The notes under the pieces are model-generated. The model did no database searches. It worked only from the letters and a program-made list of their open reading frames with translations, and was not told the origin of the DNA. A stretch of DNA of 63,185 bases, counting the filler. It is 3 parts of 3 records of this genome, joined end to end, with 100 filler letters (N's around TTAATTAATTAA, not from the genome) between each part and the next. Parts side by side here need not be neighbours in the genome. Positions count along the whole stretch, not along the records: positions 28,259 to 57,557 come from SRR31147125_4580; 2 more parts are not named here. One strand, given 5' to 3'. Position numbers and translations under genes: made by a program. Numbering within the stretch: the first letter of the stretch is position 1; the number at the start of each line of letters is the position of its first letter. Shown here in pieces: positions 33,448-60,433 of this stretch.

Positions 33448-33523
33448 TTTTATATTGAGTTTCATCGCATTTCATTGAAAATATGACATATTATTGATAT
33501 AATATGAGAGAAGTAGGTGACCT

Positions 33524-35956: not shown

Positions 35957-35965
35957 GTAAATCAT

Positions 35966-37327
35966 ATGGCAAAAACATTACCATATCATCGCGAAGCTGA
36001 ACAAGCCGTCCTCGGTATTGTTTTTCTAGACCCTAGAGAAATTGTTACAGTTTTAGATCAATTAAACAAAGATGACTTCTATGAAATGAGTCATGCGCTC
36101 ATCTATACTGCGATGCAAGATCTTTTTAACGAGAAATTAAATATTGATTTTGCAAGTGTTGCAGCAAGGCTTGAACAATCTCAAAACTTAGAGCGTGTAG
36201 GCGGTAGAAGATATCTCTTGGAACTTACAGAAATGATACCATCAGTCGATCACTTAGATACATACATTGACTTAGTAAAAGATGGATCATTAAAACGTCA
36301 AGTCATTAAAGTAGCAAGTGATATCGTCGAAGATGGTTTTAAAAAAGATGAGATGGCTTTTGAATATATCACAAGAGCTGAAGAAGATATTTTTGCACTT
36401 GCACAAAAAAGAAAAACATCAGCATTTTCTATTATTTCTGAAGTGATTAAAGAAGTAAAAGAAAAAACTGAAATGAATAGAAATAAAAAAGGTGGTATTA
36501 CAGGACTATCTACGGGATTTGCTGAATTTGATAAATTATCAGCAGGTCTTCAAAATGAAGAACTTATCATTTTAGCGGCTAGACCATCGATGGGTAAATC
36601 AGCGTTTGCGATGAATTTAGCCATTAATATTGCTAAGAAAAATAAAGAAGGTAAAGCAGGCGTTGCAATTTTTAGTTTAGAGATGAGTAATGAACAACTT
36701 GCAGCGCGTATGTTAAGCGCTGAATCAAATGTTGAAAATAATAAGATAAAAAGTGGGCATTTAACTGCACCGGAATGGCAACATATGGAAGGCGGTATGC
36801 AAACCTTATCCCTTCTTAATATATTCTTTGATGATTCAGCAGCTGTTACAGTTGCGGATATTAGAGCAAAATGTCGAAAACTTAAACAAGAAGATCATTT
36901 AGAATTTGTTGTGATTGACTACTTACAACTCATTAAAGGTGATTCTAGAAGTGGTAATCGACAAGAAGAAGTTGCTAAAATTTCAAGAAGCTTAAAAGAA
37001 ATGGCAAGAGAATTAAAAATTCCAGTACTTGCATTATCACAATTAAGTCGTGATGTTGAAAAACGTGAAGATAAAAGACCGGTTTTAGCCGATCTGCGTG
37101 AATCAGGATCTATTGAGCAGGATGCCGATATTGTTCTATTCTTATATAGAAATGATTATTATCAACGTGATCCAGATAAGAAAACTGGTGATGTTGAATT
37201 GATTGTTGCTAAAAATAGACAGGGTGCTGCTGGTATTATGTTACCATTTAGATTTGATACTGAATTCTCTAGATTTTTATCTAAAGAAGAAAGAGAAGAT
37301 TCATCATACGAAGCATATAGAGATTAA
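35966..37327 (+). CDS. dnaB: replicative DNA helicase
   Basis: AARPSMGKS, FSLEM, IDYLQL, LSQLSR and DLRESGSIEQDAD. Confidence 0.97.
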   Translation: MAKTLPYHREAEQAVLGIVFLDPREIVTVLDQLNKDDFYEMSHALIYTAMQDLFNEKLNIDFASVAARLEQSQNLERVGGRRYLLELTEMIPSVDHLDTYIDLVKDGSLKRQVIKVASDIVEDGFKKDEMAFEYITRAEEDIFALAQKRKTSAFSIISEVIKEVKEKTEMNRNKKGGITGLSTGFAEFDKLSAGLQNEELIILAARPSMGKSAFAMNLAINIAKKNKEGKAGVAIFSLEMSNEQLAARMLSAESNVENNKIKSGHLTAPEWQHMEGGMQTLSLLNIFFDDSAAVTVADIRAKCRKLKQEDHLEFVVIDYLQLIKGDSRSGNRQEEVAKISRSLKEMARELKIPVLALSQLSRDVEKREDKRPVLADLRESGSIEQDADIVLFLYRNDYYQRDPDKKTGDVELIVAKNRQGAAGIMLPFRFDTEFSRFLSKEEREDSSYEAYRD

Positions 37328-37331
37328 TCAA

Positions 37332-37363
37332 AAGACCACTGATAAGGATATATCAGTGGTCTT
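37332..37363. terminator. bidirectional terminator between dnaB and the convergent gene
   Basis: aagaccactgata...tatcagtggtctt inverted repeat. Confidence 0.75.
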
Positions 37364-37369
37364 ATATTT

Positions 37370-38806
37370 TTAATATATGATTTGTTTAAATTGATTTCTA
37401 AGTATTTCTTTTAATACATCAATCGCACTATAAAGGCGTTCGCCTGGTTTTAAGAATTTTAATATATATAATAGATCATCACCAGCTGTAATAATAGGTG
37501 GTTCCATTTGATCAGGTGCTTTAGTTTGTGCAAAACCAGCAGCAGACATTAAACCATTACATAAACATTTTCTACCTATCGTATCTTCAATTTTTCCATT
37601 TTTTTTAACATAAGCAGCAACAGGTTCACTCGGACATCGATATCCAATTTTACCATTATCCATGCGATAAGGTTCTCTTAAATAACCAATATCACAAATG
37701 CGTTTTCTAGATTGATAAACGTCATCTCTACCAACGCTATCTTCTAGGTCAACGACTTTAAATGGAAATCCAGTTGGTGATGCGAGTAAATCAGTTTTTA
37801 CTTTAGTAACACCTCTTTTTAATGCATCAATAATACGTTCTTTTAAATGTTTTGCCATGCCAGATTCTTTTGAAAATGCAAAAGCTGTACCCACTTGTAT
37901 ACCGGTTGCTCCAAGTTTTTGTGCTTCTATAAATGCTTCATGGTGTCCATATCCACCTGCAAGCCAAAAAGGAAGTCCTAGTGATTTAAGTTTTTCAAAA
38001 TCAACTTCATCTTTTTTACCATAGATAGGTTCTCCAGTATGTGATACTTGAAGTTTTCCACGAGGTGGTGCATTATGACCACCTGCAATAGGGGCTTCAA
38101 CAATAAAACCATCAGGTCTAGTTTCAATGTTTTTATAGAGATGAAGTGCAAGCGTTGTTGATGAAATAATGGCTAAAAATTTTGGTTTATGTAGTTTTGG
38201 AAGTGTTTCTCCATGAGCAAAAGCAATAGGATCAAATGTATAAGTGAAGGGTTTTTCATCACCTGTAACTTTAATTGGCATAGATGCAGATTGTTGATTG
38301 CTAAATTGTCTTATGACCTCAGGGATGTATTTTGGAATACCTGCACCCATGAGCACATAATCTACACCGGCTAACATAGCACCATAAATCGATGGAAGTG
38401 TAGGTATTTGTATCTTTTCTAATAAATTAATACCAATTAAGCCTTCATGTCCTTTTTTAGCTAAATAGACTTCAACAAAATTAGCAAGGACAATAAGTTC
38501 AGTTAATGCATCTTTTTGATCGACAGATGGCATCGGCGCTAATTTATATTTTTTTGGTTTAAGTGATGGTTGATATGTTTCTAAAACACGTTCTACGATA
38601 TCTTGAAATGGAAAGTGCTTCATGGCATCTACAATTTTCTTCCTACCTTTTATAGATTGTAGTTTACGCGTTAATGAAGTTGCGACTGCTGTGCCTGATA
38701 CGACACCTAAATAACCTTGTTTTGATATGGTACGGGCAAGTTTGACACTTGATACACCAATACCCATGCCACCTTGAATGATTGGTGGAAATTTTTTGTT
38801 TTGCAT
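37370..38806 (-). CDS. nitronate monooxygenase family flavoprotein
   Basis: PIIQGGMGIGVS, AGGHN, LAGG, GIQVGTAF and SPTGFP. Confidence 0.85.
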   Translation of the reverse strand: MQNKKFPPIIQGGMGIGVSSVKLARTISKQGYLGVVSGTAVATSLTRKLQSIKGRKKIVDAMKHFPFQDIVERVLETYQPSLKPKKYKLAPMPSVDQKDALTELIVLANFVEVYLAKKGHEGLIGINLLEKIQIPTLPSIYGAMLAGVDYVLMGAGIPKYIPEVIRQFSNQQSASMPIKVTGDEKPFTYTFDPIAFAHGETLPKLHKPKFLAIISSTTLALHLYKNIETRPDGFIVEAPIAGGHNAPPRGKLQVSHTGEPIYGKKDEVDFEKLKSLGLPFWLAGGYGHHEAFIEAQKLGATGIQVGTAFAFSKESGMAKHLKERIIDALKRGVTKVKTDLLASPTGFPFKVVDLEDSVGRDDVYQSRKRICDIGYLREPYRMDNGKIGYRCPSEPVAAYVKKNGKIEDTIGRKCLCNGLMSAAGFAQTKAPDQMEPPIITAGDDLLYILKFLKPGERLYSAIDVLKEILRNQFKQIIY

Positions 38807-39304
38807 GTGTGTTTCTCCTTATGTATAATTCATATAAATAGTTTGATATTCAAAACAATTAACTTATATTTATCATAACACAAGAAGTATATATTGCAAT
38901 AGTTTTATGTTATTAAAGTTTTTTACACATTAAAATTTCTAAATAAATATTTATAAAAAAAATTGAATTTCATTAAGGTTATCTTTCTTTGTTATAATTG
39001 AAGCATTAAAGACAATTAACTAAATCATACTTATTGTAACGAAAAAAATTAATATTAATATTATCTATTGTGCTAAAATCATGTTTACTATTGAAGTTTA
39101 AAAACATTTAACAAGTGTTTTCAAAATTGAAGCCCAATAATTATCTAAAAAAATGAAAAAGATCTGAGAAAAAGAATTTACTAAGATAGATTTACGGCTA
39201 AAATTTAATCTAGAAGTGAAGATTTAATAATATTAACTTCCGTCATTAAAAATAGTAATACTTGATAAATTATATATAGATGATTGTGAATGTGGGAAAA
39301 GTCT

Positions 39305-39603
39305 ATGGATGATGTATTAAGGAATTTTTTTAATCAAGAAAATAATTTAAGCAAAAATGAAAAAAAGAATTCTACGAAGTTGTAGAAAAAACTCTTGATT
39401 ATTTAGAGATTTACGATTTAGAACACAAAACAATAAGATTGCAGGTTTTCAAAGATTTGTATTTCAACAATAAGAATTTACCATTATATAGTATCGCAAG
39501 CAAACATAATCTTGATGTGAAATCACTTTATCATTATCGAAAAAATTTTAATTATATCGTAAAAAAATTATTATATCATAAAAAGTATCCAAAAAATCGG
39601 TAA
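39305..39603 (+). pseudogene. cryptic ~99-aa HTH-like protein split by a -1 frameshift at an A7 run
   Basis: ATG 39305 gives MDDVLRNFFNQENNLSKNEKK. The -1 frame continues EFYEVVEKTLDYL...LQVFKDLYFNNKNLPLYSIASKHNLDVKSLYHYRKNF...* (stop 39601-39603). Absent from the ORF track. Confidence 0.55.
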
Positions 39604-39623
39604 TTATATTACCGTTTTTTTTT
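39592..39623 (+). terminator. hairpin/terminator upstream of the Mur-Rhs operon
   Basis: cggtaat-tat-attaccg followed by a long T run. Confidence 0.6.
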
Positions 39624-39680
39624 GCTTTTATTGTTTAAAATAGAAGTAAAGACTACAAAATATGAAAGGGGGAAAAGAAT

Positions 39681-40772
39681 TTGAAAATAATTGGAATAAC
39701 AGGTAGCTATGGGAAAACTTCTGTTTCTGAAATTTTGTATGACTATTTTATAAAATCCAAAGTAAAAACATCATTATACTGTTCTAATGGTTTTTTTATA
39801 AATAAAGAAACAAGAAGAAAAGATTTTTTTAAAACAAGTATGCATAAGGATGATTATATAGAGCTACTTAGAGATGACAAAGAATTAGGTGTTAAAATTG
39901 CTATTATTGAGATTAAGGTAGAAAGTATGCTTTACGATTTAAAGTTGGATGAGATAGAATATGATCTTATGGTGATGACTAATTATGATTCATTGAAAGA
40001 TACTATTTTTCAAAATTCAGAAGCACATTTTCAAGCTTATCAGAAGTTATTGTCAAAACAAAAAAATATGATGATTAATAGTAGTGTGCCTAAGGATTTG
40101 TTTACGTCATACAAGAATTATAATTACTTTGGGCTAGAAACCAGTGGTAAACTTACTATAGATTCGCTTGCACAGTTATTGAAAATAGTTAAGTCTAAAT
40201 TAGGAAATAAAAACTTTGAATCTAAATTAAAAACTTATTTTCACCTAGAGAATTTACTTTGCTCAATAGCTTCACTAGAAAAAATTAACATGTTTAGATT
40301 GCGGGAATTTAAAAGAACGATTAGAAATATAAGAATTCGAGGAAGAATGGAATTCGTAAAATTCAAAAACAAAAAAATAATTATTGATAATAAAAATCAT
40401 GATATCAAATCTTCTATTGACGCGATAGTTCAATTTCATGGCAACTACAATTATAAGATATATCTTTCAATACTACCACATCAGTATAGTACATATAGCA
40501 ATGAAATACTCAATGAAGACATGATTGAACTAAAAAAGAGTAAATGGAATTATTTAACTTACGACAATTTAGATTCTAGATTAGAAGGATTATATTTTGA
40601 TGAAGTGCAATATATTAATGGATGCTCATTGCTTAATTACTCAAAAAATTCGTTAGAATTACTTGATCAAGCAATTAGAGAATTAAAAAAAGATGAGATA
40701 TTAATTATCTTTACAAAAAGAAATTACAGAAACTATAGAAAGCATTTGGAAAGAAAAAATGGAAAAATATGA
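39681..40772 (+). CDS. divergent Mur-ligase (MurE-like) protein lacking the N-terminal domain
   Basis: Begins directly at the P-loop MKIIGITGSYGKTS; also AIIEI, MTN, ENL, RGRME and IIID. TTG start with a G-rich RBS. Confidence 0.72.
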   Translation: MKIIGITGSYGKTSVSEILYDYFIKSKVKTSLYCSNGFFINKETRRKDFFKTSMHKDDYIELLRDDKELGVKIAIIEIKVESMLYDLKLDEIEYDLMVMTNYDSLKDTIFQNSEAHFQAYQKLLSKQKNMMINSSVPKDLFTSYKNYNYFGLETSGKLTIDSLAQLLKIVKSKLGNKNFESKLKTYFHLENLLCSIASLEKINMFRLREFKRTIRNIRIRGRMEFVKFKNKKIIIDNKNHDIKSSIDAIVQFHGNYNYKIYLSILPHQYSTYSNEILNEDMIELKKSKWNYLTYDNLDSRLEGLYFDEVQYINGCSLLNYSKNSLELLDQAIRELKKDEILIIFTKRNYRNYRKHLERKNGKI

Positions 40773-41094
40773 AACATTACTAAGTTATATTTCTACGATA
40801 CTTATTTTGTTATTTACGACAATAACATATATAATTAAATTTATTGAAAAACAAAGAGAGATTAAAAGAATGAACGATTTAAATTTAATTGAAAATGAAC
40901 TTGAAAGATTAATTGTAGAAGCGGAAAAATTATTTGATACAGGTAATGTCAAAGAAAAATTTGTGATTGATCGCTTAAGAAGTTTTGCAAGTGATTATAA
41001 GATAAAACTCAATTTCAATGAAATGCAAGAGAGAATCGAAAAACTTATACATATCACTAAAGAGATTAACACACCTGGAGGAACAAGCTCATGA
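40759..41094 (+). CDS. small single-TM protein resembling LL-H-type phage holins
   Basis: One N-terminal TM, then a helical region 'LIVEAEKLFDTGNVKEKFVIDRL...IEKLI' like the holin AE..G.EK pattern. Confidence 0.55.
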   Translation: MEKYETLLSYISTILILLFTTITYIIKFIEKQREIKRMNDLNLIENELERLIVEAEKLFDTGNVKEKFVIDRLRSFASDYKIKLNFNEMQERIEKLIHITKEINTPGGTSS

Positions 41095-41681
41095 AGAGGA
41101 TAGTTAGCATTCAAGACGTTGTAAAAGGAAATCTGAAATCAGGAAAATACACTTGCATTGATATAGAAGAGGATTACACGTTGAATATTGGTTATGGAGA
41201 AATTGAGATTTTTCATATTGCTCAATGGCTATTGAAAAATGGTAGAGCTTGTCAATTTGCATTTATCAATAAAAAACTCTTTTTCAGAGTGGTTCAAAAA
41301 GAACCAATTGTATTTATTAATGTTCATGAAGAGGCACTTATCAACAAAGGCGAAATCAATGAAATACTCATTGATAGCTTACCAATATATGTTAAAGAGA
41401 TAATGCATGATAGTATTAGTAGCATTCAAATCAAAGATAATGAAATTCTACTTGTAAATAAAGATATGTCTAAAGGAAAATTATTAAATCCTTTTATCAG
41501 TCATTTAAACACAAAAGTATTACACAAAAGCCCTTTTAGAAAGGTAGGAATATATAACACTAATAAAAGCGAATCAAAACAAATAACACCAGATTCAAGG
41601 CAACCAATAAATAGAATTAATAGTAATAATAATAATACAATATTTAGTAATAAGGAGAATGAAAATGGGTTATTACGTTGA
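41091..41681 (+). CDS. hypothetical protein
   Basis: 196-aa ORF with GGAGG RBS and ATGA overlap with the upstream gene; no recognisable motif. Confidence 0.65.
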   Translation: MKRIVSIQDVVKGNLKSGKYTCIDIEEDYTLNIGYGEIEIFHIAQWLLKNGRACQFAFINKKLFFRVVQKEPIVFINVHEEALINKGEINEILIDSLPIYVKEIMHDSISSIQIKDNEILLVNKDMSKGKLLNPFISHLNTKVLHKSPFRKVGIYNTNKSESKQITPDSRQPINRINSNNNNTIFSNKENENGLLR

Positions 41682-42291
41682 TGAAGTAAAGACAGTTAGT
41701 CAATATGCTGTAATTAATTTTAAGAATGCAGATGGAACAATATTTAAGGCAGTGAGATGCATGATTAATGAGAATGTAGATTTGCCATATTTTCCGACAG
41801 ATACAAGTTATTCAGAAGATCCGATTACTGGAAACAAATATTACTCATTTGTTGTCGGGTGGAAAGATGAAGATGGGAATCCTGTTAACAATATAGTTGC
41901 TCCTGATTTAAACAATTCGAACGATTATTTCATTGATATATATAATTTACTTGTTGATAAAGTAGTTGTTATGGAAACTGAAAACGATGGGAGTCAAGGA
42001 ATGCTTTCTAATGATGCATTGAAGATTATTTCAAACAAGAAAATATATCTAGCCAACACTAGTTATGGCTATTATTTAATTAGACCATCAATATCATATA
42101 GCTATACTGATAATGGAGATATCTTAAATGAAGTAATATTTACAGTTGATAATATGGTAGATTTTCCAGGACAAACAACATCATTAGAGCCAGAGTTTAC
42201 AGTATATAAAGATGTAAATAACACAGAAAAGATAGGTACAATAAATTTTGAAATATTAGTTGTTCATTCAAGTGAACTTACGGGAGATTAA
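41659..42291 (+). CDS. hypothetical acidic beta-rich protein
   Basis: 210-aa ORF with AAGGAG RBS. The segment INFKNADGT...LP..P......YSFVVGW weakly resembles a Listeria/Bacteroides (InlB B-type) repeat. Confidence 0.65.
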   Translation: MKMGYYVDEVKTVSQYAVINFKNADGTIFKAVRCMINENVDLPYFPTDTSYSEDPITGNKYYSFVVGWKDEDGNPVNNIVAPDLNNSNDYFIDIYNLLVDKVVVMETENDGSQGMLSNDALKIISNKKIYLANTSYGYYLIRPSISYSYTDNGDILNEVIFTVDNMVDFPGQTTSLEPEFTVYKDVNNTEKIGTINFEILVVHSSELTGD

Positions 42292-42293
42292 TA

Positions 42294-43730
42294 ATGAAAA
42301 TAGAACAGTTAAGAGAGAAACTAAGATTAAACAACAAGGTATATCCAACTAAAAAATTTGCAGATATTTATAGTTCTAAAACAGTATCTGATATTCAAAA
42401 ACTAAAAAAACACACAACTAATTTATTTAGGTCTAGTTTAAAATATATTGGGACAGAAAAAGTCTCAACTGATAATAATATGAAGATTATTGGAATAACA
42501 GGAAGTCATGGAAAATCAAGTGTAGCTTTTATGATTCATGAGTATTTAAAAGAGATTGGTTATAAAACTGTTTTGTACTCTAGTATATCAGTTGATTCGC
42601 CAGCATCTTATAAAAAAGTAAATGAAGCTGTTGAGAATCCATTGAGGGATCAGCAAATGTTGCTAAACGCAATTGAAGAAGCATATGCATATAATGCTGA
42701 TTTCTTAATTTTGGAAGTGAATGAAAGAGCAATAAAAAAAGGGTTATCTAAAGATATTCCTTTTGATATGAGAATTATTACGAATATAAATCCAACACAT
42801 AACACATTCTTTTATCCAGATTATGTTGAAATTAAAAAACAGTTTTTTAAAGAAGTAAATCAAGAAGATGATGTGGTTTGCTTGTTTAATGCAAATGACA
42901 AAGATATTTTTAATAGTTTGTATGAAAGTAATAGAAAATCAAAAGTAACCTATATGTCGAAATACGTTGCCAATAAGAGAGGAATTAACCCAAATAAAGT
43001 AAATTATATAATGACTGCAAATGATGTCATGGACACAATTGAAGGGCTTCAGTTTATTGTTAAGGGGGCAAAAGATGATTACAATATAAAAACTAACATG
43101 CTTTTTCCTCATAATGCATTAAATATTACATGTGTAGTAGCATCTCTTGAAACACTAGGACTCTATCATGATCAGATGTTTAATAATTTTATTAAAAACC
43201 TTGTAGTTCCAGGGGTAGATGAAGTGTTTGAATACAAAGGTAGAAAAATAATTGTCACAAGAGGTATTTCTCCACATCTAGAAGTTCTAGATAATTATAA
43301 GAAAAGAGGAGATTTTTCTGAACTTCATCTTGTTGCTGGTACAACTGGGCTAGGCTATAAATCTTGGGTTAAAGAGTTTCCTGATGAAAGTTATATCAGT
43401 GAAAAAGAATATTCAGTTTCTTTTGCTTATAAGTATGCAGAAAAGTATGTTGATAAAATCTACATTACAACAAACGATAGTGCAGCAACAGATAAACAAG
43501 AATTGATGAATTATCAATCATCTTTTATATCAAATCAAATTGAAAAAGAAATGATTCAAGACAGATATGAAGCACTAAGTAAAGCTATTCAGAATTCAAA
43601 TAGTGGGGATGTTATTTTAGTGAGTGGTAGAGGAAATCGTAGGGTCATGTGTAATTCTGAAAATATAAGAAAATTGCATCTGGACAGTGAAGCAATATTC
43701 AAATTGATAAATAGCAAGGAGTTGAATTAA
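42294..43730 (+). CDS. MurE-like ligase with a short basic N-terminus in place of the UDP-MurNAc-binding domain
   Basis: IIGITGSHGKSS, LILEV, ITNI, HNALN, ITTND and DRYEALSKAI...GDVILVSGRG (MurE C-terminal motif). Confidence 0.8.
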   Translation: MKIEQLREKLRLNNKVYPTKKFADIYSSKTVSDIQKLKKHTTNLFRSSLKYIGTEKVSTDNNMKIIGITGSHGKSSVAFMIHEYLKEIGYKTVLYSSISVDSPASYKKVNEAVENPLRDQQMLLNAIEEAYAYNADFLILEVNERAIKKGLSKDIPFDMRIITNINPTHNTFFYPDYVEIKKQFFKEVNQEDDVVCLFNANDKDIFNSLYESNRKSKVTYMSKYVANKRGINPNKVNYIMTANDVMDTIEGLQFIVKGAKDDYNIKTNMLFPHNALNITCVVASLETLGLYHDQMFNNFIKNLVVPGVDEVFEYKGRKIIVTRGISPHLEVLDNYKKRGDFSELHLVAGTTGLGYKSWVKEFPDESYISEKEYSVSFAYKYAEKYVDKIYITTNDSAATDKQELMNYQSSFISNQIEKEMIQDRYEALSKAIQNSNSGDVILVSGRGNRRVMCNSENIRKLHLDSEAIFKLINSKELN

Positions 43731-46700
43731 ATGAGTGTTTTTTATTTCAATAAAGAAGCTGATAATGCATTACCATGTAGTGGAGCTATCTTTCTTCATC
43801 ATTATAATGCATTTAAGTCCCTTAGTGATTCGGGTGCATACTTAGTATTAGAAAATTGGGATAAACAGGATCATATTTTTTTTGAATTAGATTTCAGTAA
43901 AATTATTGATGCAAATGAAGTGTTACTTTCAAACTTCAACTTAATCATTAGTTCAAAAAAAGGAACAAAATTTAGGATATATGAAGTAGACCCATTCGAT
44001 CTTTCATCTCTGACTGAAGATGACCTTCTCAATGAACTGAATAAAAATAGTGACCCAATTTTTAAGATTACCACAACAAATAATGACTATGAGACAGAAT
44101 TTTTTGAAAATGATATCACCAAATACGTCAAAGAAAGTATTAATAATGGTAATAAAAAAGTATATATCAGAATTGAACATGATTCAATTCATAATGTTGC
44201 TATTGCTCATCCAAATGACTATGAACCATTAGTTACAGTTGAAACAGACATGCCAGAAAACTGTATGACAATTCATGAATTAGATGATAGTAATAAGATA
44301 ATTGTGAATGATGCAAAGGGATCGATTATCCAAGTGTTACCCTCAGTTGAGGGGATTGGATTAACCCTAAACAATAGTCAATATACAGATAAATCAAATG
44401 TCATGACAAGTCTTAAAATCCGAATAAAAGAAGATAGTTTTTATAGATATACGATTTATGATAACTTCGGAAACAAGGGAATTTATAGATACATGTCAGG
44501 TGATTTCGGTGCAGACTACTATGGATTAGAAATACTTCGTGATAAAGTATATGTGTTTCTTAATATTAGTGATTTAAGCTTCTTTGAAGAGTTTGATTCT
44601 AGCCTTGAAATTTTCTATCAAGACGGAACTGTCATAACGATGAGTGCAGACGGTTCAAGCCAAGATTCCGAAGGGAATAGCATTTATAATTTGCAAAATA
44701 TCACTAATAAAGACGGGTCATATCTTCAATTAGATTGGAGTAGTTCAAATCAAGTTATTGCAAGAAATCATCATAACGAGACCATTACAATTTCTATAAG
44801 TGACAATAAAATAGACTCATTAGAAATACCTAAGTGGAAAAAGAAAATCGAACTAGAATATATATTTTTTAATAATAGATATTACTTAAAAGAATATAAC
44901 GAGTTTAATTGTGATAATTTTAATAATTATTTAGTAAAGTCGAGACTATTTGAGTATAATGCAAATATGTATCTAACAAAATTTAACACATCTGATAGCA
45001 CCTTAGAGGCTACCTATATATATGAGTCAAATAAACTAAAAAAAATTTTATTTGATAATGGGATTTTGAATTCATTAGAGTATACGTATCACGCTAATGA
45101 TAATTATACTGAAATAAAAAATCAATTTAATGAAGTGAGTAATATATATTATAATGATGCTTCTCAGAAAGTTATGATAAGCAGCAACGATAACTATGTA
45201 ACATATGAATCACAAAGTAATTATAAAGGAGAATATATCAGTCAGTTTAAAGAGGTTGTATCTATTAAAGATAATGTTCTTCTTAATTCTAATTATCAAA
45301 CTCAATCTAATGATTCTTTGTTAAGTATAAACTATTGGGATGGATTTAGTAATGAATTTGGTATGGGGGATACTGTTGAAAGTAATTCTTTCTTTCCAGA
45401 AATCATTGGATCAAATATAGTTAAATTCTTAGGTGAAGAAAATAACATAAGAACTTTTAAAACTACCTATGAATCTGATGAAAATTATGAAGGTGATCAA
45501 TGGTTTTTTAGTATATGGTGTAAGGCGGATATTCCTTTGAAAGAAATATTTCAAGTTGAGTTTAGAGTAAATAAAATTTCAAATGGTTTTGATAAATATA
45601 CATTCAACTTGAATAAATCTGAAAAGAACTGGCAAATACTTACAGGTAGTTTCACAACAAAAACTAATTATTCATCTATAGTGTGCTCAATCAAATATGA
45701 AGGTTCAAGTCATGTATATATTGGTAAAGCAAAACTATATAGAAAACCAGAAAGCGTTCACTACGATTATAACAAGTTAAGTCAAGTTGAAGGATTTAGC
45801 GTAGGATCAAACCAATTAGAGTTTATGTATGATGAGGGTAAATTAATTCGAGCTACAACACAATCAGGAAGAATGATAAATTATATTTATGATACAAGTG
45901 GGAATCTTATTTTAATAGAAGATAGTTGCTCATTATTCAAGATAGAAAATGAGTATTTGAACGGGAACATTGTAAAACAAATAAGAACAACCTTAGATGG
46001 AAAAACATCTAAAACATTTTATGAGTATAATGAGAAAAATGAACTGATTAAATCCGTAGATGAATTTGGCTTGTCAGTTGATTATATTTATGATAAGTTT
46101 GGGAGATTAGTTGATTTGCAAGATTCAAGTGGTATTGTATATAGCACAGATTATGATACAAAAGGAAGAATAATCGAAACAAAGAATCATATAAACGATA
46201 GGGTTGATGGTGGTTTTTTTGAGTATGGTAATAATAAAGAACTGTCAGTTTTAACTACTAAGAACAATACAGAGTATGAATTTTCATATAACGATATGAA
46301 CTTAATCAATAATATTTCAGTAAATGGATCTGATTTAGAATCAAGAGTATATGAAAAAGTAATAAACAATTATAATACGGGTTTAATGACACAGAAGCAA
46401 TATGGTAATGGAGTTAACAATAAATTCCAGTTTGAGTATGATGACAAACATAGATTGCTAACAAAAAAGAATAATCAAAATGATATGGTTGCCATTTCTT
46501 ATGATGATGAAAATAATACAGTTAATATTTTAGATCATGTAAATCAAGTTCTAAAAGAACAGCATCTAGATATAAGAGGGAGAACCGTTAAAGAAAGCAT
46601 AACATCTTCAAATCAAACTATTGAAGAACATTTATATGCTTATGATAATTTAGATGGTTTACAGAAACGCTCATATATATCAAATAAACCAGATTATGTT

Positions 46701-49700
46701 GATAGAACATACGATTTTGATCATGATTATGAGTTCCAAGAGTATAGTTTAGAAGGTTACTTAGATAGAATATCTAGCGCATTTTTAAATGATTATTTAC
46801 GTCCAAATAATGCGGGTAATACTTTATATTCAAAAATTAAAATCAAACCAAATAATACTTCATATATTTTTAAAGATGCCCCGGAACTTAAACTATTTAC
46901 GAATGATTTTAATAAAGATTTGAATCAAAACGTAATGAGATTTAATGATTTAGAAGGGTGTTTAGTATTTGATGAGAATAAGATAAATTCAAATAGAGTA
47001 GATGGGAAATACTATGGAAATCATCAATTTATCAAAAGTGATTGGGACAATGACTTTAAAGATGATAAAATTATTTATGCATGGATTAAATTAACTGGTC
47101 AAGTAACTTCTGCCAAAGAACTTATGAGATTAGGAAGTTTATCTTTGAACGTAAACTATGAAAATGAGATTTATCTTAACGATAATGGTTCAATTATTGA
47201 AACTAATCAGCCTATTTTCTTCGATGAATGGACACTGATAGGGTTAAGAGTTAAAAAAATTGATTATCAAAACTATAGTGCTACAGTATACATTAATGGT
47301 AAGTATACTATACACAATGTTTCTCAAAATGTTTCGGAAATTAATCTTTTATCGATAGGGTCTTATCCTATAAGCAACCCTAATCAAACATACTTGAATA
47401 ATAAAACATTTATACAGGCGGAGTGTGTAATGGATGTTCTATATGTTGGTTATGGAGCAAGTAATACTACCAGTGATAATCTGACAAAAATCTATGAGGA
47501 TGGCAAACTATATCTTGATACAGCACTAATATATAACAAAGACCAAGTATCTTATTATAATCACACTATATACGCTGGTGCAGAGGTAGTTACATTAAAT
47601 GGATCTTATGTTTCGTCATTAGGAAAAAGGCCAAAATCCTATTCATATACTGATGGTAATTATAAGTCTAATAAGACTAAATTGTTTAAATTTGATCATC
47701 AGCTTCAAAAGCATACTTTTGGAAGTTATAGTAACTATGAAAGTTATGATGCAGTTAAAAACTCTGTGTTGTCATATGACTTAATATTTAGTACTGTTGG
47801 ATCTGTCAACATTTTTGTTAAACCATTTTCAAAATACAAATCAGAGAAAAGAACAATTTTGGGATTTATGAATGGTACAGTAAGTACACTTGATTTGTTC
47901 ATTGACGAAAATTACATACTCAAATATAAAATTAATGGAGCTGAATATAATAGTAGGATGCAATTGAATATTGATAAGTGGAATATGGTGACAATGCTAT
48001 GGCAGCCAAATCAAGTGCAATTGAGTTTGAACAATTCAGAATTTAAAACCAAAACAACTTTTACCATTGATTTGTCTGGGACAACATTGTTTATTGGTTC
48101 AAGATATTTAGATGATATACCTATAAATCACTTTGAAGGTCAATTGCAAATGCTTTCCATTTGGGATACAAATATCACGAAACAAAAAATAACTGAACTA
48201 TTTAACGAAGGGTTACAATTGAGTGTGCAAACTGAGTATGATCATCATGGAAGAATGAAAGCAACAAATATCATAAATAATAAATCAATACTTACAAAAA
48301 AATATCAATACTTTGATGAAAAGTATATAGACAATAATGAAGAGAAGCAAAAGTTTAATGCTCTTCCAACAAGTGAAATAGATATTGACGGTAATGAAAT
48401 TGTATATATATATGATGAATATTTAAACGTAACGACTAAAGAGATAATAGATGATTCGGGGAAACCTATCTCGGTTACTCGTTATAAATATGATGATCTT
48501 AAACGATTATCTAAAGAAACATTAAGTTTTGTATCTATGGATGAAAGTGATCCATTGAATCCAATCAGAAATGAAACCTTCGACTATTCATATGAGTACA
48601 AATATGATTCAAATGGTAACATTTTGGAGAAGACTAGTGTTGATGATTATAGTCAATTATTATTCAAAGATACATATCACTATTCTTCTACTTATAAAGA
48701 TAGATTGGAAAGAATCAGTAGGTTGGAAAATAGTAATGAAATAGACATTTATAATTTATCTTATAGTGCTGATGATCAATTTAGACCAACAACAATTATT
48801 GAAAATGGACAATCTATATCACTTTCATGGAATGGTCCTCGATTAATGCAATATGGATCAACTCAATATGCATATAATGAAAGTGGACTAAGAATCAAAA
48901 AAGTAGGAACAGATTTAAATGTGAAATACGACCATGATGGTTCTATGGTCATAAAATCTACAGATATTATCAGTTCAAAAGTAATGGATTACCATTTTGA
49001 TCAAAATGAACAAGTGATAGGATTTAATTTCGAAGGAAAAGAATTCTTTTATCAAAGGAACATTTTAGGTGAAATTTATGGTATAATTGACAAAAATGGT
49101 AAGAAATTTGTATCCTATAAGTATACTGCCTATGGTGTGCCAACTATTGAAATTCCAAGTCATCTAACAACAATAGAATTATCCATAGCACAAACAGTTA
49201 GTGAATTAAATATCTACTTATACAAAGGATATATTTACGATCAAGAAACTGGTTTATATTATTGCCAAACAAGATACTATAATCCTCATATAGGTAGATG
49301 GTTGAGTATTGATAGTATTGATTATCTTGATCCAAACAGTATTAATGGATTAAATCTTTATGCATATTGTGGTAACAATCCAGTCATGTTGATGGATCGC
49401 GGCGGAAATAGTCCAACTTGGTGGAATCCATTTAGCTGGTTTGATAATGTAAGTAATGTAGGAAAAATCGTAATTGGTGGAATATTATTTGTTGGTGCAG
49501 TCGCATTAACGATTGCAACAGGTGGTGCATTGGCACCTGTATTTATTGGAATGGCAGTTGGTGTTGGAACTGGTACTTTGATAGGTGGATTTTCATCAGT
49601 AATCGGTTCTGGTGGTGATTGGAGCCAGTTTGGCCAAGGTGCTTGGGATGGATTTTCAGATGGTGTTTTATGGGGTGGTATATTTGCTTTTGCTAGTGCA

Positions 49701-50030
49701 AGTATTGGTGCAATAAAATATGCTGCAAAAGGCTCACAGGGAGCACTACAAGGAACTACAAAAATGACTACGATAACAAAAGGACAGCAGTTTGATAGAT
49801 TTGGTAGTGTTCATGGAAAATTTATAACGGATGTTGGAACTTCTTCAAGTAGACTTGCACTACCGACAACAAACTCTGGAACGAAAATTACTTTACAAGC
49901 AGCAAAAAATTTCAGAGTATTTACGGGTACAATTGCACCAGGATTTGGTAGTACTGGTGGTGGAACTCAATATGTTATGCGCTACTCGATTGAAACCCTA
50001 TTGAAAAAAGGATGGATAGTGCTTTTATAA
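43731..50030 (+). CDS. Rhs/YD-repeat polymorphic toxin with carbohydrate-binding/LamG-like inserts and a C-terminal TNT-like domain
   Basis: YD repeats, Rhs core YKGYIYDQETGLYYCQTRYYNP..GRWLSID and NLYAYCGNNPVMLMDRGG. A Gly-rich hydrophobic segment follows, then FDRFGS..GKF...LALP...G.IAPGFG..GGGTQY (TNT/DUF4237 pattern). Confidence 0.9.
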   Translation: MSVFYFNKEADNALPCSGAIFLHHYNAFKSLSDSGAYLVLENWDKQDHIFFELDFSKIIDANEVLLSNFNLIISSKKGTKFRIYEVDPFDLSSLTEDDLLNELNKNSDPIFKITTTNNDYETEFFENDITKYVKESINNGNKKVYIRIEHDSIHNVAIAHPNDYEPLVTVETDMPENCMTIHELDDSNKIIVNDAKGSIIQVLPSVEGIGLTLNNSQYTDKSNVMTSLKIRIKEDSFYRYTIYDNFGNKGIYRYMSGDFGADYYGLEILRDKVYVFLNISDLSFFEEFDSSLEIFYQDGTVITMSADGSSQDSEGNSIYNLQNITNKDGSYLQLDWSSSNQVIARNHHNETITISISDNKIDSLEIPKWKKKIELEYIFFNNRYYLKEYNEFNCDNFNNYLVKSRLFEYNANMYLTKFNTSDSTLEATYIYESNKLKKILFDNGILNSLEYTYHANDNYTEIKNQFNEVSNIYYNDASQKVMISSNDNYVTYESQSNYKGEYISQFKEVVSIKDNVLLNSNYQTQSNDSLLSINYWDGFSNEFGMGDTVESNSFFPEIIGSNIVKFLGEENNIRTFKTTYESDENYEGDQWFFSIWCKADIPLKEIFQVEFRVNKISNGFDKYTFNLNKSEKNWQILTGSFTTKTNYSSIVCSIKYEGSSHVYIGKAKLYRKPESVHYDYNKLSQVEGFSVGSNQLEFMYDEGKLIRATTQSGRMINYIYDTSGNLILIEDSCSLFKIENEYLNGNIVKQIRTTLDGKTSKTFYEYNEKNELIKSVDEFGLSVDYIYDKFGRLVDLQDSSGIVYSTDYDTKGRIIETKNHINDRVDGGFFEYGNNKELSVLTTKNNTEYEFSYNDMNLINNISVNGSDLESRVYEKVINNYNTGLMTQKQYGNGVNNKFQFEYDDKHRLLTKKNNQNDMVAISYDDENNTVNILDHVNQVLKEQHLDIRGRTVKESITSSNQTIEEHLYAYDNLDGLQKRSYISNKPDYVDRTYDFDHDYEFQEYSLEGYLDRISSAFLNDYLRPNNAGNTLYSKIKIKPNNTSYIFKDAPELKLFTNDFNKDLNQNVMRFNDLEGCLVFDENKINSNRVDGKYYGNHQFIKSDWDNDFKDDKIIYAWIKLTGQVTSAKELMRLGSLSLNVNYENEIYLNDNGSIIETNQPIFFDEWTLIGLRVKKIDYQNYSATVYINGKYTIHNVSQNVSEINLLSIGSYPISNPNQTYLNNKTFIQAECVMDVLYVGYGASNTTSDNLTKIYEDGKLYLDTALIYNKDQVSYYNHTIYAGAEVVTLNGSYVSSLGKRPKSYSYTDGNYKSNKTKLFKFDHQLQKHTFGSYSNYESYDAVKNSVLSYDLIFSTVGSVNIFVKPFSKYKSEKRTILGFMNGTVSTLDLFIDENYILKYKINGAEYNSRMQLNIDKWNMVTMLWQPNQVQLSLNNSEFKTKTTFTIDLSGTTLFIGSRYLDDIPINHFEGQLQMLSIWDTNITKQKITELFNEGLQLSVQTEYDHHGRMKATNIINNKSILTKKYQYFDEKYIDNNEEKQKFNALPTSEIDIDGNEIVYIYDEYLNVTTKEIIDDSGKPISVTRYKYDDLKRLSKETLSFVSMDESDPLNPIRNETFDYSYEYKYDSNGNILEKTSVDDYSQLLFKDTYHYSSTYKDRLERISRLENSNEIDIYNLSYSADDQFRPTTIIENGQSISLSWNGPRLMQYGSTQYAYNESGLRIKKVGTDLNVKYDHDGSMVIKSTDIISSKVMDYHFDQNEQVIGFNFEGKEFFYQRNILGEIYGIIDKNGKKFVSYKYTAYGVPTIEIPSHLTTIELSIAQTVSELNIYLYKGYIYDQETGLYYCQTRYYNPHIGRWLSIDSIDYLDPNSINGLNLYAYCGNNPVMLMDRGGNSPTWWNPFSWFDNVSNVGKIVIGGILFVGAVALTIATGGALAPVFIGMAVGVGTGTLIGGFSSVIGSGGDWSQFGQGAWDGFSDGVLWGGIFAFASASIGAIKYAAKGSQGALQGTTKMTTITKGQQFDRFGSVHGKFITDVGTSSSRLALPTTNSGTKITLQAAKNFRVFTGTIAPGFGSTGGGTQYVMRYSIETLLKKGWIVLL

Positions 50031-50054
50031 AAGATATTAGGAGGATAAATCTTT

Positions 50055-50506
50055 ATGGAATGTTTTAGAAACATTGAAGATGGAATATATTTAGAAACAC
50101 CTAAGATATATTTAACGTGGGATACACATAAAGATAGTGTCATTGCGCTAAATGATAGTTTTGAATTAGTTAATGATTCGTATTATACACTAAAAGTAAA
50201 ACTGTCTAATATCCCCTTTGTTGATTATTTAGGGATCCATTTTAACGATGACAAAATCTCAAAAATTGAAATGTTTAACAAACACGAAAATGTTAATGAT
50301 ATAGCGAATGTTTTTTATGATAATCAAACTATTTTAGAGAAAAGTATTGGAAAACCAATAAAACAATCATTTAGTTCTGTCTTATTTAGAGGTGAGAAAA
50401 AAAGATTAAGCATTTTAAATGGAAATTCAAGAATATAGAATTAATTCATAAATTATGGGATAGGTTTGGGTTAGAAGAAAGACTAGAAATAATCATAAAA
50501 CACTGA
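50055..50506 (+). CDS. putative immunity protein (frameshifted at A7; annotated frame ends 50438)
   Basis: Small gene directly after the toxin, with GGAGG RBS. The -1 frame from the A7 run (50397-50403) reads IKHFKWKFKNIELIHKLWDRFGLEERLEIIIKH*. Confidence 0.65.
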
Positions 50507-50637
50507 TGCAAAAAGTTTAGTATTCCTATTCTGCGTAACGTGGCTATACTAATAGCCGCGTTATCGCATACTAAACCGTGCTGATATTAAGTTTAACTAA
50601 AACATTATGTGATTTAAGAAATCGTAATATTTAGGCT

Positions 50638-50667
50638 AAGGAGTGTTGAAATCAACATTCCTTTTTT
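50638..50667 (+). terminator. intrinsic terminator after toxin-immunity pair
   Basis: aaggagtgttga-aa-tcaacattcctttttt. Confidence 0.75.
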
Positions 50668-50755
50668 GATGCAAAAAACATCAACAAGATTAATCCAATG
50701 CCACAAAATGTCATAAGTGCTTCATATACTTGAAGTATAAGAGGTGTTTAGACAT

Positions 50756-52498
<1,743 letters not shown>

Positions 52499-52579
52499 TG
52501 ATATTTTGTCGTTTTAACTTTATAAAGGTTTGTTTAACTGTTATAATTAAGGTGATTAAAGGCATAAAATGACTTGTAC

Positions 52580-52850
52580 CTATATATATGTAACACTCCA
52601 GTGATGTTGATGGATGCCGATAGAAATAGTCCAACTTAGTAAAATCCATTTAGCTGCTTCGATGATGTAAATACTGTAGGAAAAAATTGTAATTGGTGGA
52701 TTATGGTTTGTTGGTGCAGTGGCACTAACAATTGCGACAGGTGTTGCATTGGTACCTGTATTTATTGGAATAACAGTTGGTGATTAGCTCCAGTTTGTTC
52801 AAGGTGCTTGGGATGAATTTTCAGATAGTGTTTTATGTTGGATATATTTG
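52580..52850 (+). repeat. degenerate copy of the Rhs core-end / pre-toxin segment (~49360-49690)
   Basis: Shared blocks ccagt.atgttgatggat, aaatagtccaactt, aatccatttagctg, gtaattggtgga, tttgttggtgcagt, cctgtatttattggaat, caaggtgcttgggatg and attttcagat.gtgttttatg, with stops and a deletion. Confidence 0.88.
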
Positions 52851-52907
52851 ATTTAAGTATGTGTATGCGATAAATTATTACAAATAATCAAAATACAGGG
52901 AGAAATA

Positions 52908-54122
52908 ATGAAATTCAAAGTATATATAGGAACAGTTATGATGCTATGTTTAGTATTACTTTCAGCTTGTACTAATATAGGTCAAAAAACTATCATAACC
53001 ATTGAGTTTGATGATCAAATAAATGTCAATGAGAACAAATTAATAACGGTTTATAGTAATCTAAATGGAGATACATTTACATTTAAGTCCAGTGATGAAT
53101 TAATCGTTGTTGTAGACGACAATGGATTGGTATTAGGTGTTGAGGCCGGAGAAGCGTGGATAACTGTGACATCATCATCAGGCGAAAGTATAGAGCATGC
53201 CATAACCGTTATGCCACTTGTGCTTGTTGAACATATTTCTTTGGAACTAGAAGAACAGGATAATTATTATGCTGGAAAGACATATGCATATAGTATTCAG
53301 TATTTTCCAGAAAACGCCAGTAATAAGCAAATAATATTTTCAGATTCTAATCCAAATATAATTATTAATGAAAATGATCAAAAAATCACATTTATTAGAG
53401 CTGGAGAATCAACTATTTTTGTATATTTAGAAGATGAATGGCTTGTTCAATCTAGAGTTGATCTTGATGTTAAGTATGATAAGAATTCTACGATATATGA
53501 CTTATTATTTGTAGGCAATAGTTTAACAAAATATACATTTAACATTCCTTTGATGGTCAAGAACATGATTGAAAAAGACGGTTCAATCGTATATATCGAT
53601 TACAGCAATAACTATCAATATTTAGATCAGCATGAGTTTAACCTTGTTAATGCATTAAGTAAAAATAGATATTCACATGTTATTTTACAAGAACAAAGCG
53701 CAGGATTAGTAACTGATTTCAATCGTTTTAAAGAAAGTGTTATAAAATATAACGATTGGATTATAGAAAATGGGGCAAAAACTGTTTTATATCAAACGTG
53801 GGCATATAATTATGCAGACGATTTACAAAAACAAATGATGCATGAAACAGTTACACAAGGATATAGTGATATGGCATTAGAAATAAATTCAATGATTTCT
53901 CTTGTAGGGGAAGTATTTATGGAAACTAACATAAGTAATCCTGAAATTGAATTATATGTGGATATCAATCATCCAAGTATATATGGTGCATATTTATCTG
54001 CTTTAGTACACTATAAAACAATCACAGGTAATGATGTACAACATGTTAAATATTGTCCACAGGAAATTCCTTTGGAAATAGAAAAAATATTAAAGAATAT
54101 TGTTGATACCACGATATCATAA
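52908..54122 (+). CDS. lipoprotein with Ig-like (Big_2) domains and SGNH/GDSL-like hydrolase domain
   Basis: Lipobox LSAC; FKSSDE.IVVVDDNG.V.G (Big_2); LFVGNSLT, VILQEQS, YQTW and D.NHPS..G.YL. Confidence 0.78.
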   Translation: MKFKVYIGTVMMLCLVLLSACTNIGQKTIITIEFDDQINVNENKLITVYSNLNGDTFTFKSSDELIVVVDDNGLVLGVEAGEAWITVTSSSGESIEHAITVMPLVLVEHISLELEEQDNYYAGKTYAYSIQYFPENASNKQIIFSDSNPNIIINENDQKITFIRAGESTIFVYLEDEWLVQSRVDLDVKYDKNSTIYDLLFVGNSLTKYTFNIPLMVKNMIEKDGSIVYIDYSNNYQYLDQHEFNLVNALSKNRYSHVILQEQSAGLVTDFNRFKESVIKYNDWIIENGAKTVLYQTWAYNYADDLQKQMMHETVTQGYSDMALEINSMISLVGEVFMETNISNPEIELYVDINHPSIYGAYLSALVHYKTITGNDVQHVKYCPQEIPLEIEKILKNIVDTTIS

Positions 54123-54219
54123 TAGTATTTAAAAAAGTGATAACCATTATTAGAAAATAAGATTATCACCTTAATTGCTTATCTTTAATCAAAATGTAAT
54201 CATTAGATTTGATAAAAAG

Positions 54220-54275
54220 AAAAAGGACTGATATGTCCATGGAGTTAAATAACTTCATTGGTATCAGTCCTTTTT
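54220..54275. terminator. terminator hairpin downstream of dps
   Basis: aaaaaggactgata...tatcagtccttttt inverted repeat. Confidence 0.7.
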
Positions 54276-54298
54276 AATTTAAATGTTGATATGTCCAA

Positions 54299-54733: not shown

Positions 54734-54845
54734 TATATACCACCTTTCTTTACTAACTTAATTATAACACTATTTATAACAGATGACAAATGTTATGATG
54801 TGGTAAAAATCATAATTTTATGGTAATATATATCAGGTGATAAAA

Positions 54846-57302: not shown

Positions 57303-57416
57303 TAATACTTGCTTTTTTTCGCATGTAATACGTTATCATAGGGTTTTTCAACGTTTTTACTAGATAAAATATAAAAATAGTATATAATAGTAACGGTAAT
57401 TTATAAGAGGTGAATC

Positions 57417-60325: not shown

Positions 60326-60433
60326 TTTTCTGTTTTTAGAATTTACCTAACTAAATGCAAAACTCATCACATAACTTTTAGGTCACGATTGTTCATTTAA
60401 TAAAATGAATAATATTAGTTGCCTATTTCCTTT

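Follow-up and report, generated by a model that had tools for sequence, protein, structure and literature searches.

We describe a set of seven coupled genes on the plus strand at 39681–50438 of a 63,185-nucleotide stretch of DNA (hereafter the window), which consists of three parts joined end to end with filler between them. In our view these genes form a conserved, ligase-dependent, holin-associated Rhs toxin cassette, and our confidence in this much is high. The fuller interpretation is of a conserved polymorphic-toxin cassette of Acholeplasmatales and related low-GC Bacilli, the toxin of which would be released by a holin while the ligase would modify the C-terminal aspartate of the protein encoded immediately upstream of it; we hold this with about as much confidence as doubt, and our confidence in the specific chemistry of the ligase is moderate to low. 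The invariant core appears to comprise, in fixed order, an all-β protein ending in Asp (rarely Glu), a MurE-like ligase and a giant Rhs protein, with an immunity gene next. Phage-derived holins usually accompany this core (LL-H type here, Hol44 plus an XhlA-like protein elsewhere), and the core is often joined by a small regulator or a sigma-like factor.

The seven genes lie exactly where an earlier note, made from the letters of the window alone, had placed them, and all of its open reading frames (ORFs) and overlapping or abutting junctions were reproduced. In gene order the junctions are overlaps of 14, 4 (ATGA) and 23 nucleotides (nt), followed by gaps of 2, 0 and 24 nt. The terminator that the note had placed after the operon was also found, as a hairpin at 50638–50663; the region as a whole has ten terminator-like sites, compared with 2.9 expected from shuffles. 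The interpretation offered in the note, that of a dedicated export module in which a holin provides membrane passage and two ligases modify, anchor or chaperone the toxin, is supported in part. The components of the cassette are as follows, with lengths in amino acids (aa).

39681–40772, plus strand: mur1, an apparently degenerate Mur-ligase paralogue, 363 aa, TTG start (PF08245, E 5.1e-9)
40759–41094, plus strand: LL-H-type holin-like protein, 111 aa, with one N-terminal hydrophobic helix and then a helical domain
41091–41681, plus strand: unkA, N-terminal module of the tail protein, 196 aa, here an ORF of its own and in relatives fused to the unkB part
41659–42291, plus strand: unkB, 'acid-tailed' two-domain all-β protein, 210 aa, ending in TGD (AlphaFold2 model and family alignment)
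42294–43730, plus strand: mur2, MurE-like ATP-dependent ligase, 478 aa, without the UDP-binding N-domain (PF08245, PF02875)
43731–50030, plus strand: signal-less Rhs polymorphic toxin, 2099 aa (Pfam, NCBIfam, hydrophobicity)
50055–50438, plus strand: immunity candidate, 127 aa (by position only)
50638–50663, plus strand: terminator-like hairpin closing the operon, an 11-pair stem followed by a T-run

The linkage of the Mur-like ligase to an Rhs gene, on which the proposal in the earlier note depended, recurs widely. A word-indexed protein search returned 250 relatives of mur2 at E ≤ 0.001, the named ones being from Acholeplasma oculi, Acholeplasma sp., Haploplasma modicum and metagenome-assembled genomes (MAGs) of Acholeplasmatales. 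Scanning one genome from each species with a profile as guide gave 77 loci, among which L001–L050 hold true relatives (33–49% identity); the remainder are ordinary distant Mur ligases and were left out of the counts. Where an ORF lies downstream of the ligase gene in these 50 loci, it starts within −35 to +17 nt of the ligase end in 48 of 49 cases. This ORF is large, reaching at least 800 aa in 43 of the 50 loci, and the other seven are cut by a contig end or fragmented; no locus among the 50 has the ligase and room for a giant ORF yet lacks one. A BLAST match to the window Rhs protein was obtained in 35 loci. The ligase was found at E ≤ 1e-50 in only five genomes in a genome-wide search of 307 Acholeplasmatales genomes, which added five further loci; the upstream protein ends in Asp in all five, and a giant follows in the four that have downstream sequence (4/4). 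The same gene order is present in these 50 + 5 loci at ligase identities of 33–56%.

One of these five loci, L085, repeats the order of the window (small regulator, degenerate ligase, LL-H holin, acid-tailed protein, ligase, Rhs, small ORF), and its 2083-aa Rhs protein is 35.6% identical to that of the window over the full length. Carriers include Acholeplasma, Haploplasma, Anaeroplasma and many gut Bacilli MAGs, often with several copies per genome; several genomes have three or more, and one (G015) has five. We note that L049 and L016, on contigs labelled Prevotella sp. and Bacteroidales, have cassettes almost the same as those in L050 and L007, which are from Anaeroplasma/Bacilli MAGs; the labels are probably binning errors rather than evidence of transfer.

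The protein encoded directly upstream of the ligase (position −1) belongs to a family of about 188 aa in 38 loci and to the unkB family in 11. These families, and those at positions −2, −3 and −4 described below, were defined by clustering and hidden Markov model (HMM) searches. The C-terminal residue of the −1 protein is Asp in 48 of 50 loci, Glu in one and Ala in one, compared with a background of C-terminal Asp in 20 of 507 (3.9%) other ORFs of the same loci; the loci are related, so a binomial figure would overstate their independence. The upstream proteins are otherwise less than 25% identical, and only F161, G209 and D210 are invariant in the unkB alignment. A search of 1.84 billion cluster representatives with the unkB-family profile gave 78 proteins, 53 of which match in a single stretch, with 50 reaching the profile end. 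These 50 full-length representatives terminate in Asp (42) or Glu (8), the residue being preceded by glycine in 33 (-Gly-Asp) and seven (-Gly-Glu) of them. Longer members of the unkB family are extended at the N-terminus only, none having a C-terminal extension, and the other 25 profile matches are large repeat proteins that cover only profile positions from about 10 to 90. The near-invariant C-terminal Asp beside the ligase had been missed in the earlier note and is the main addition of this follow-up.

The earlier note had listed two unknown genes between the holin-like gene and mur2. They are separate ORFs in the window, but not unrelated genes: unkA corresponds to the N-terminal extension of the fused, longer forms found in L003 (409 aa), P0126, P0134 and P0142, and the two 'unknowns' can therefore be regarded as one split protein. 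No family match was found for unkA in Pfam, NCBIfam or PHROG, or for unkB in Pfam or NCBIfam, and the ESM Atlas gave nothing usable for unkA. The AlphaFold2 model of unkB has a predicted local distance difference test (pLDDT) score of 90.1 and a predicted template-modelling (pTM) score of 0.82, and the model of the other −1 type (the L010 protein) has a pLDDT of 86.6. Both consist of a C-terminal β-sandwich followed by a less ordered tail. Foldseek comparison of the unkB model with the PDB and BFVD gave no matches at E ≤ 0.001, and the L010 model gave eight marginal, generic Ig-like viral matches (E ≤ 0.001, TM ≤ 0.38). A predicted complex of mur2, unkB, ATP and Mg, computed without alignments, scored 0.00, which is evidence neither way. 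A likeness between the N-terminus of the family-1 upstream protein and those of phage tail fibres is unsupported, since a tblastn search of 50,697 phage records gave no match to the −1 tail proteins.

The ligase mur2 matches Mur_ligase_M (PF08245, E 4.7e-18) and Mur_ligase_C (PF02875, E 1.3e-6). It has no Pfam match before residue 68, and the UDP-binding N-domain is missing; the alignment with its best PDB match, the MurE structure 4bub (E 6.7e-33), begins at 4bub residue 102, at the end of the UDP-binding domain. The protein scores far below every MurE cut-off; with the MurE model TIGR01085, mur2 reaches 114.1 bits and mur1 67.2 bits, where 257.3 would be needed. The P-loop, the Mg-binding Glu, the TN..H motif, Lys181 and GRGNRR are invariant or nearly so in 31 sequences with identities down to 35%, and among them the P-loop, Glu and Lys181 are strictly invariant. 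Lys181 aligns with the carbamylated lysine (KCX) of Mur ligases, and the motif at the position of the MurE DNPR motif is replaced. We take the roles of these residues to be those familiar from the Mur ligase literature. There are also weak matches to the PgsB, FolC, CfbE and cyanophycin synthetase models, that to CphA covering residues 59–444 (E 2.6e-5). Only the M-like part aligns with cyanophycin synthetase, far below the cut-off, and Pfam gives no ATP-grasp match in mur2. The ligase has no close relative in the 50,697 phage records, among which a single 23% match was found.

In a quick tree of mur2-type ligases, one clade (SH-aLRT, an approximate likelihood-ratio support value, of 91) takes in 12 of the 13 loci whose tails are -Gly-Asp. 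L005 and L030 are in this clade, yet the body of their upstream protein is of the other family. The agreement between ligase clade and tail motif is suggestive, although it gives weak support since relatives share labels.

The second Mur-like protein, mur1, occurs in only three loci (the window, L003 and L085) and has the M domain only. It keeps the P-loop, Glu and TN and is without the His motif, GRGNRR and the TxNDS motif; it is probably a degenerate, non-catalytic partner. Of the two ATP-dependent amide ligases envisaged in the earlier note, mur2 stands, having the full catalytic motif set, while mur1 does not, its His and C-terminal motifs being lost.

The 2099-aa protein contains RHS repeats (PF05593, E 1.4e-13; TIGR01643, E 2.3e-11) together with the following features.

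47802–48191, plus strand: Laminin_G_3 (concanavalin-like) insert, residues 1358–1487 (PF13385, E 2.9e-8)
49203–49406, plus strand: Rhs-associated core, residues 1825–1892 (TIGR03696, E 1.4e-18)
49449–49562, plus strand: hydrophobic, glycine-rich pre-toxin segment (two 19-residue windows from residues 1907 and 1926, Kyte–Doolittle mean at least 1.6)
49770–50021, plus strand: TNT (NAD+ glycohydrolase-type) toxin domain, residues 2014–2097 (PF14021, E 9.7e-16, 58.4 bits compared with a cut-off of 27)

Among 32 complete giants, 31 have a hydrophobic stretch lying C-terminal to the Rhs core and ahead of the tip. At the other end of the protein, none of 44 giants, that of the window included, has an N-terminal hydrophobic segment, and none of 41 N-terminal stretches of 450 aa has a trafficking domain, the only matches being to DUF6531 (9/41) and RHS (2/41). 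In five carrier genomes, neither EssC above the cut-off (0/5) nor a WXG100 match (0/5) was found. The description of the protein in the earlier note as a signal-less Rhs-TNT toxin, with no marker of the Sec pathway or of the type VI (T6SS) or type VII (T7SS) secretion systems, therefore agrees with the domain matches, the N-termini and the carrier genomes alike.

The C-terminal tails differ among relatives, with PT-HINT in seven, AXH in four and TNT in two of 31, and the ORFs downstream of 29 giants include two SUKH-3 and one Imm44 protein. In a separate sequencing run (X3), a 73-kb contig agrees with the window as far as 49088 (about 2% differences) and departs from it thereafter, and a window-like tip is found on another contig (about 8% differences); together they display the pattern expected of tip exchange. 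The immunity candidate of the window has no match in Pfam, NCBIfam or immunity families, and the ESM Atlas gave nothing usable; it is 150 aa long if an extra A is placed at 50396. In L041 (Acholeplasma laidlawii 8195), two ORFs of 449 and 481 aa that lie 3' of the main Rhs gene, at 17799–21257, match the Rhs core/tip region and look like displaced or orphan toxin tips.

The 111-aa protein of the window is weakly matched when taken alone (TIGR01673, E 2.8e-4; PF09682, E 0.01; phrog_6918 holin, 8.8e-4), with 16.6 bits compared with a cut-off of 24.9 for PF09682 and 21.3 compared with 34.75 for TIGR01673. Its family matches PF09682 in 7/7 members, with a best E of 8.4e-9, and we consider it to be a putative LL-H-type holin. 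This type takes the place of the Hol44 pair in six loci and in the window. Elsewhere the −2 position is occupied by a 96-aa three-helix Hol44 holin in 24 loci (PF16079, E 5.3e-14; phrog_1129, E 1.7e-15) and the −3 position, in 17 loci, by a 98-aa protein that has a coiled coil besides its N-terminal hydrophobic helix (phrog_1863, E 1.7e-14, weak XhlA), while a 254-aa sigma-like factor is found at −4 in 14 loci. By HMM searches, 29 of the 43 loci with at least 1.5 kb of upstream sequence (L044 included) have a holin-like gene within 4 kb, so that the recurrence of holins near the cassette, which the earlier note had anticipated, is observed. No peptidoglycan hydrolase was seen among the eight window proteins or the scanned conserved neighbour families, with no genome-wide search having been made. 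In L010 (6575–8491) and L047 a 638-aa phrog_4031 protein (E 1.7e-142) lies just upstream of the holin.

Upstream of mur1 are two small features.

39305–39603, plus strand: small regulator-like ORF (sigma-70 region-4/HTH-like by resemblance), split at an A-run; 26 aa as assembled, 99 aa with an extra A
39598–39614, plus strand: terminator-like hairpin 3' of the regulator ORF

A small ORF also precedes the cassette in L085, where BLAST gives 32.6% identity over residues 2–44 of the window ORF (E 7e-5), and in L003, where the two are alike by eye only, with no BLAST match. The window ORF has no HMM match to the 254-aa sigma-like family. Its A-run at 39353–39359 is one A short in the window, which could reflect either a fault of the assembly or phase variation that switches the cassette. 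Contigs of other sequencing runs carry a nearly identical island; the extra A at 39359 is present in those of runs X2, X3 and X4, and the extra A at 50396 in all four other runs compared. Because the other runs have one more A at both sites, the window record must contain homopolymer miscalls there, or else the A-runs vary.

The earlier note had likened the host contig to Acholeplasmatales/Izemoplasmatales, a group that typically lacks peptidoglycan, and the present results place the host in the Acholeplasmatales. The DnaB protein of the window is 88–90% identical to those of three genomes in a sample of 121 Acholeplasmatales genomes, and the low-GC part of the window is an Acholeplasmatales chromosome. 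Among the five nearest relatives sampled (three close and two more distant), from which the mur/dcw content of the host is judged, none has a transpeptidase match and each has one Mur_ligase_M match; the nearest relatives have no island or cassette, no penicillin-binding proteins (PBPs) and no Mur pathway genes. A restriction of the cassette to wall-less hosts, however, does not hold: three carrier genomes are walled, with PBPs present and 7–8 Mur ligase matches each. In H. modicum and A. laidlawii, both wall-less carriers, the mur2-type ligase is retained and PBP matches are absent.

The mechanism that we propose would proceed as follows. The regulator would switch on the operon in some cells, and the holin would open the membrane, allowing the signal-less cytoplasmic Rhs complex to leave with or without lysis, as in known holin-dependent systems; in a wall-less host an endolysin would not be needed. 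By analogy with its relatives, the ligase would activate a carboxylate on the terminal Asp of the −1 protein and link it to an amine, which might be that of an amino acid or of an Rhs lysine. Through this ligation an accessory subunit would be matured or attached, with targeting or assembly as its probable role. Once at the target cell, the TNT domain would be carried across the membrane by the hydrophobic segment. We put forward more tentatively a narrower version, in which the Mur-type ligase conjugates the ~200-aa β protein, through the side-chain or α-carboxylate of its C-terminal Asp/Glu, to a lysine of the Rhs protein or to another amine.

Several observations weigh against this proposal. 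The tie between ligase and acidic tail rests on adjacency, on the invariant terminal residue and on the chemistry of relatives. Neither of the −1 models matches a known fold beyond generic β-sandwiches, and the two −1 families are weakly related to one another, with an hhalign probability of 23% (E 8.6e-4) over the C-terminal 89 columns, in register. A holin-like gene was not detectable in 14 of the 43 loci with enough upstream sequence, which puts the holin outside the invariant core; in these loci it may be supplied in trans or not be needed. Three of the carriers are walled and no peptidoglycan hydrolase is found among the conserved neighbours, and a wall would stop a protein of about 230 kDa that had only a holin to leave by. 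The assignment of the window immunity gene is by position only. Finally, MurE-like proteins can have structural, non-enzymatic roles, as PAP11 does.

This last point leads to an alternative that we consider unlikely but worth weighing, namely that the MurE-like protein works as a chaperone or adaptor, non-catalytic or binding ATP, which keeps the Rhs protein or its hydrophobic pre-toxin segment in the cytoplasm or hands it to the holin. The acid-tailed protein would then be a subunit of its own, structural or for targeting, with the terminal Asp serving for binding rather than ligation. The ligase and giant genes are translationally coupled, the structural subunit PAP11 is among the PDB matches of mur2, and mur1 has been kept in three loci despite its lost catalytic motifs, all of which would fit such a role. 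The near-invariance of the P-loop, Glu, His motif, KCX-aligned Lys and GRGNRR across the 31 sequences is nevertheless hard to explain without catalysis; fused or longer forms of the ligase, including ligase–Rhs fusions, were also not found at E ≤ 1e-30, although this is weak evidence. Catalysis need not involve the upstream protein. The ligase might instead act as PgsB/CapB or MurT do, making or modifying a small molecule, peptide or surface polymer on which toxin action, self-protection or cell-surface display would depend, with no relation to the terminal Asp. Mur-family enzymes do have such roles, mur2 has its weak matches to the PgsB, FolC, CfbE and cyanophycin synthetase models, and H. 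modicum and A. laidlawii keep the ligase without any PBP. We nevertheless judge this improbable. It leaves unexplained both the Asp/Glu end of the upstream gene product in essentially every case and the agreement of ligase clade with tail motif, and no partner enzymes such as GatD or CapC are found among the conserved neighbours.

It could also be argued that the genes are a decayed prophage lysis or tail-fibre module lying beside an unrelated Rhs gene, so that the adjacency is meaningless. The holins are of phage families, a recombinase lies at the end of the island that carries the cassette, and the phrog_4031 protein is found upstream in a locus such as L010. A module of this kind would not be expected to keep its gene order in 50 + 5 loci over ligase identities of 33–56%. 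In the sampled loci, moreover, the genes beyond the cassette upstream are housekeeping rather than phage structural genes, and the phage records yielded one 23% match to the ligase and none to the tail proteins. With housekeeping neighbours and no close homologue in phage records, we reject a prophage identity and regard this explanation as very improbable.

The modification of an acid-tailed partner by the ligase, which we prefer, can be set beside several known systems. Tc toxins, too, contain an Rhs-type cocoon. Holin-dependent release is established for large clostridial toxins and for Tc toxins (PMC3369941, PMC6200909, PMC8878733, PMC9527704, PMC10847048). The Clostridium difficile pathogenicity locus (PaLoc; TcdR sigma factor, TcdE holin, TcdA/B) and Tc release by the type X secretion system (T10SS) of Yersinia entomophaga resemble the cassette in having a signal-less giant beside a phage-derived holin, and PaLoc also has a dedicated sigma-like regulator, as do many cassette loci. 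The cassette, however, has no endolysin, endolysin remnant or spanin, its toxin is a bacterial polymorphic Rhs protein with immunity rather than a glucosyltransferase or ABC toxin, the ligase and acid-tailed pair has no counterpart in PaLoc or Tc loci, and its holin is missing from about a third of loci. Compared with the T10SS as a holin plus a peptidoglycan hydrolase, with or without a spanin, the cassette has the holin but not the hydrolase.

With the Rhs/YD polymorphic toxins (WapA, PAAR-Rhs, LXG-Rhs; PMC3482391), the giant shares RHS repeats, the core, exchangeable tips (TNT, PT-HINT-linked), SUKH-3 or Imm44 proteins downstream and displaced tips. It differs from the Sec, T6SS and T7SS classes of these toxins in having no signal peptide, PAAR, VgrG, LXG or WXG, and T7SS components are found in none of the five carriers. 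Judged by its genes, the cassette would work like holin-dependent toxin release, with a toxin that its Rhs features would make an Rhs polymorphic toxin.

For the ligase, the closest parallel in chemistry is the MurE-like M domain of the cyanophycin synthetase CphA1, which adds Arg to the β-carboxyl of a C-terminal Asp (PMC9427784). Like mur2, this is a MurE-type module without a UDP-binding domain, and it acts on a C-terminal Asp. Unlike CphA1, mur2 has no ATP-grasp G domain or N domain, belongs to stand-alone proteins of 45–55 kDa and is closer in sequence to MurE; it presumably acts on a folded protein (about 200 aa) rather than on a polymer.

A further comparison is with prokaryotic protein tagging by Pup and PafA. 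There, a C-terminal Gly-acidic residue is activated by a carboxylate–amine ligase and joined to an amine, and the cassette tails are -Gly-Asp in 33 and -Gly-Glu in seven of the 50 representatives. The enzymes differ in type (Mur compared with glutamine synthetase), as do the substrates (a folded tail protein of ~200 aa compared with a disordered 64-aa tag), and in the cassette a conjugate is predicted only. With MurE itself, mur2 shares the central ATP-binding and C-terminal domains, the P-loop, Glu, the His motif and the KCX-aligned Lys; it differs in lacking the UDP domain, in the replacement of the DNPR-type motif and in its location beside a toxin rather than in a dcw cluster, and in being present in hosts without PBP matches. 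We found no polymorphic toxin locus described in the literature as having a Mur-type ligase. Most of the main text of the survey by Zhang et al. (2012; PMC3482391), apart from the supplements that list architectures and neighbourhoods, makes no mention of Acholeplasma or Mollicutes, nor of a holin, MurE or Mur ligase. What could prove categorically new in the cassette is the ligase/acid-tail pair.

The cassette is carried on a genomic island inserted between a nitronate-monooxygenase-like gene and a Dps gene. The window is colinear with two relatives, G119 and G050, at 33468–38900 and 54297–57557, and in G050 these flanks are only ~108 bp apart, as expected of an empty site. Besides the cassette, the island contains a recombinase and one further cargo gene.

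38867–54290, no strand: 15.4-kb genomic island carrying the cassette (synteny with G119 and G050)
50889–52498, plus strand: large serine recombinase (Resolvase, Recombinase, Zn_ribbon_recom, DUF4368) at the island end, interrupted as assembled
52908–54122, plus strand: Big_2/DUF4886 protein, further island cargo

The recombinase frame has one in-frame stop and one frame change as assembled, and all of its domains are present; part of the interruption may be an assembly error, given the homopolymer miscalls elsewhere in the assembly. In run X5 a contig at a depth of about 31 joins position 39086 to 49059, and the stretch between them is at a depth of only 1.4–9. The dominant strain of that run may keep the island ends and toxin tip with a different or diverged cassette body, the side of the joint being only 30 letters long.

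Some other parts of the window are noted for completeness. A run of N's with an all-frame stop spacer at 28159–28258 joins two contigs, with a GC content of 53% at 1–28158 and about 30% at 28259–63185, and an aminotransferase gene and an EF-Tu gene are truncated at the joint; the parts on either side probably come from different organisms of one bin. A single 810-aa ORF at 33524–35956 combines the GdpP domains (PAS, GGDEF, DHH, DHHA1) with that of ribosomal protein L9, either as a real fusion or through a lost stop. On the minus strand at 57899–62744 are MacB/FtsX-type permease genes, one of which is apparently split into ORFs of 147 and 483 aa.

The cassette would offer a compact and widely repeated answer to the question of how an Rhs toxin leaves the cell without Sec signals, a T6SS or a T7SS, above all in wall-less bacteria, and its ligase accounts for the 'MurE' annotation in Acholeplasma genomes that are without peptidoglycan. 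It also suggests that a Mur-family ligase may act on a protein C-terminus, which would extend the chemistry of a well studied enzyme family. Were the conjugation described above to be real, it would amount to a Pup-like or Atg8-like covalent arming by an enzyme of peptidoglycan origin, which would place an exchangeable targeting or assembly subunit on a holin-released toxin. The Mur ligase fold would then have a new enzymatic role, and the polymorphic toxins a new class as regards trafficking.

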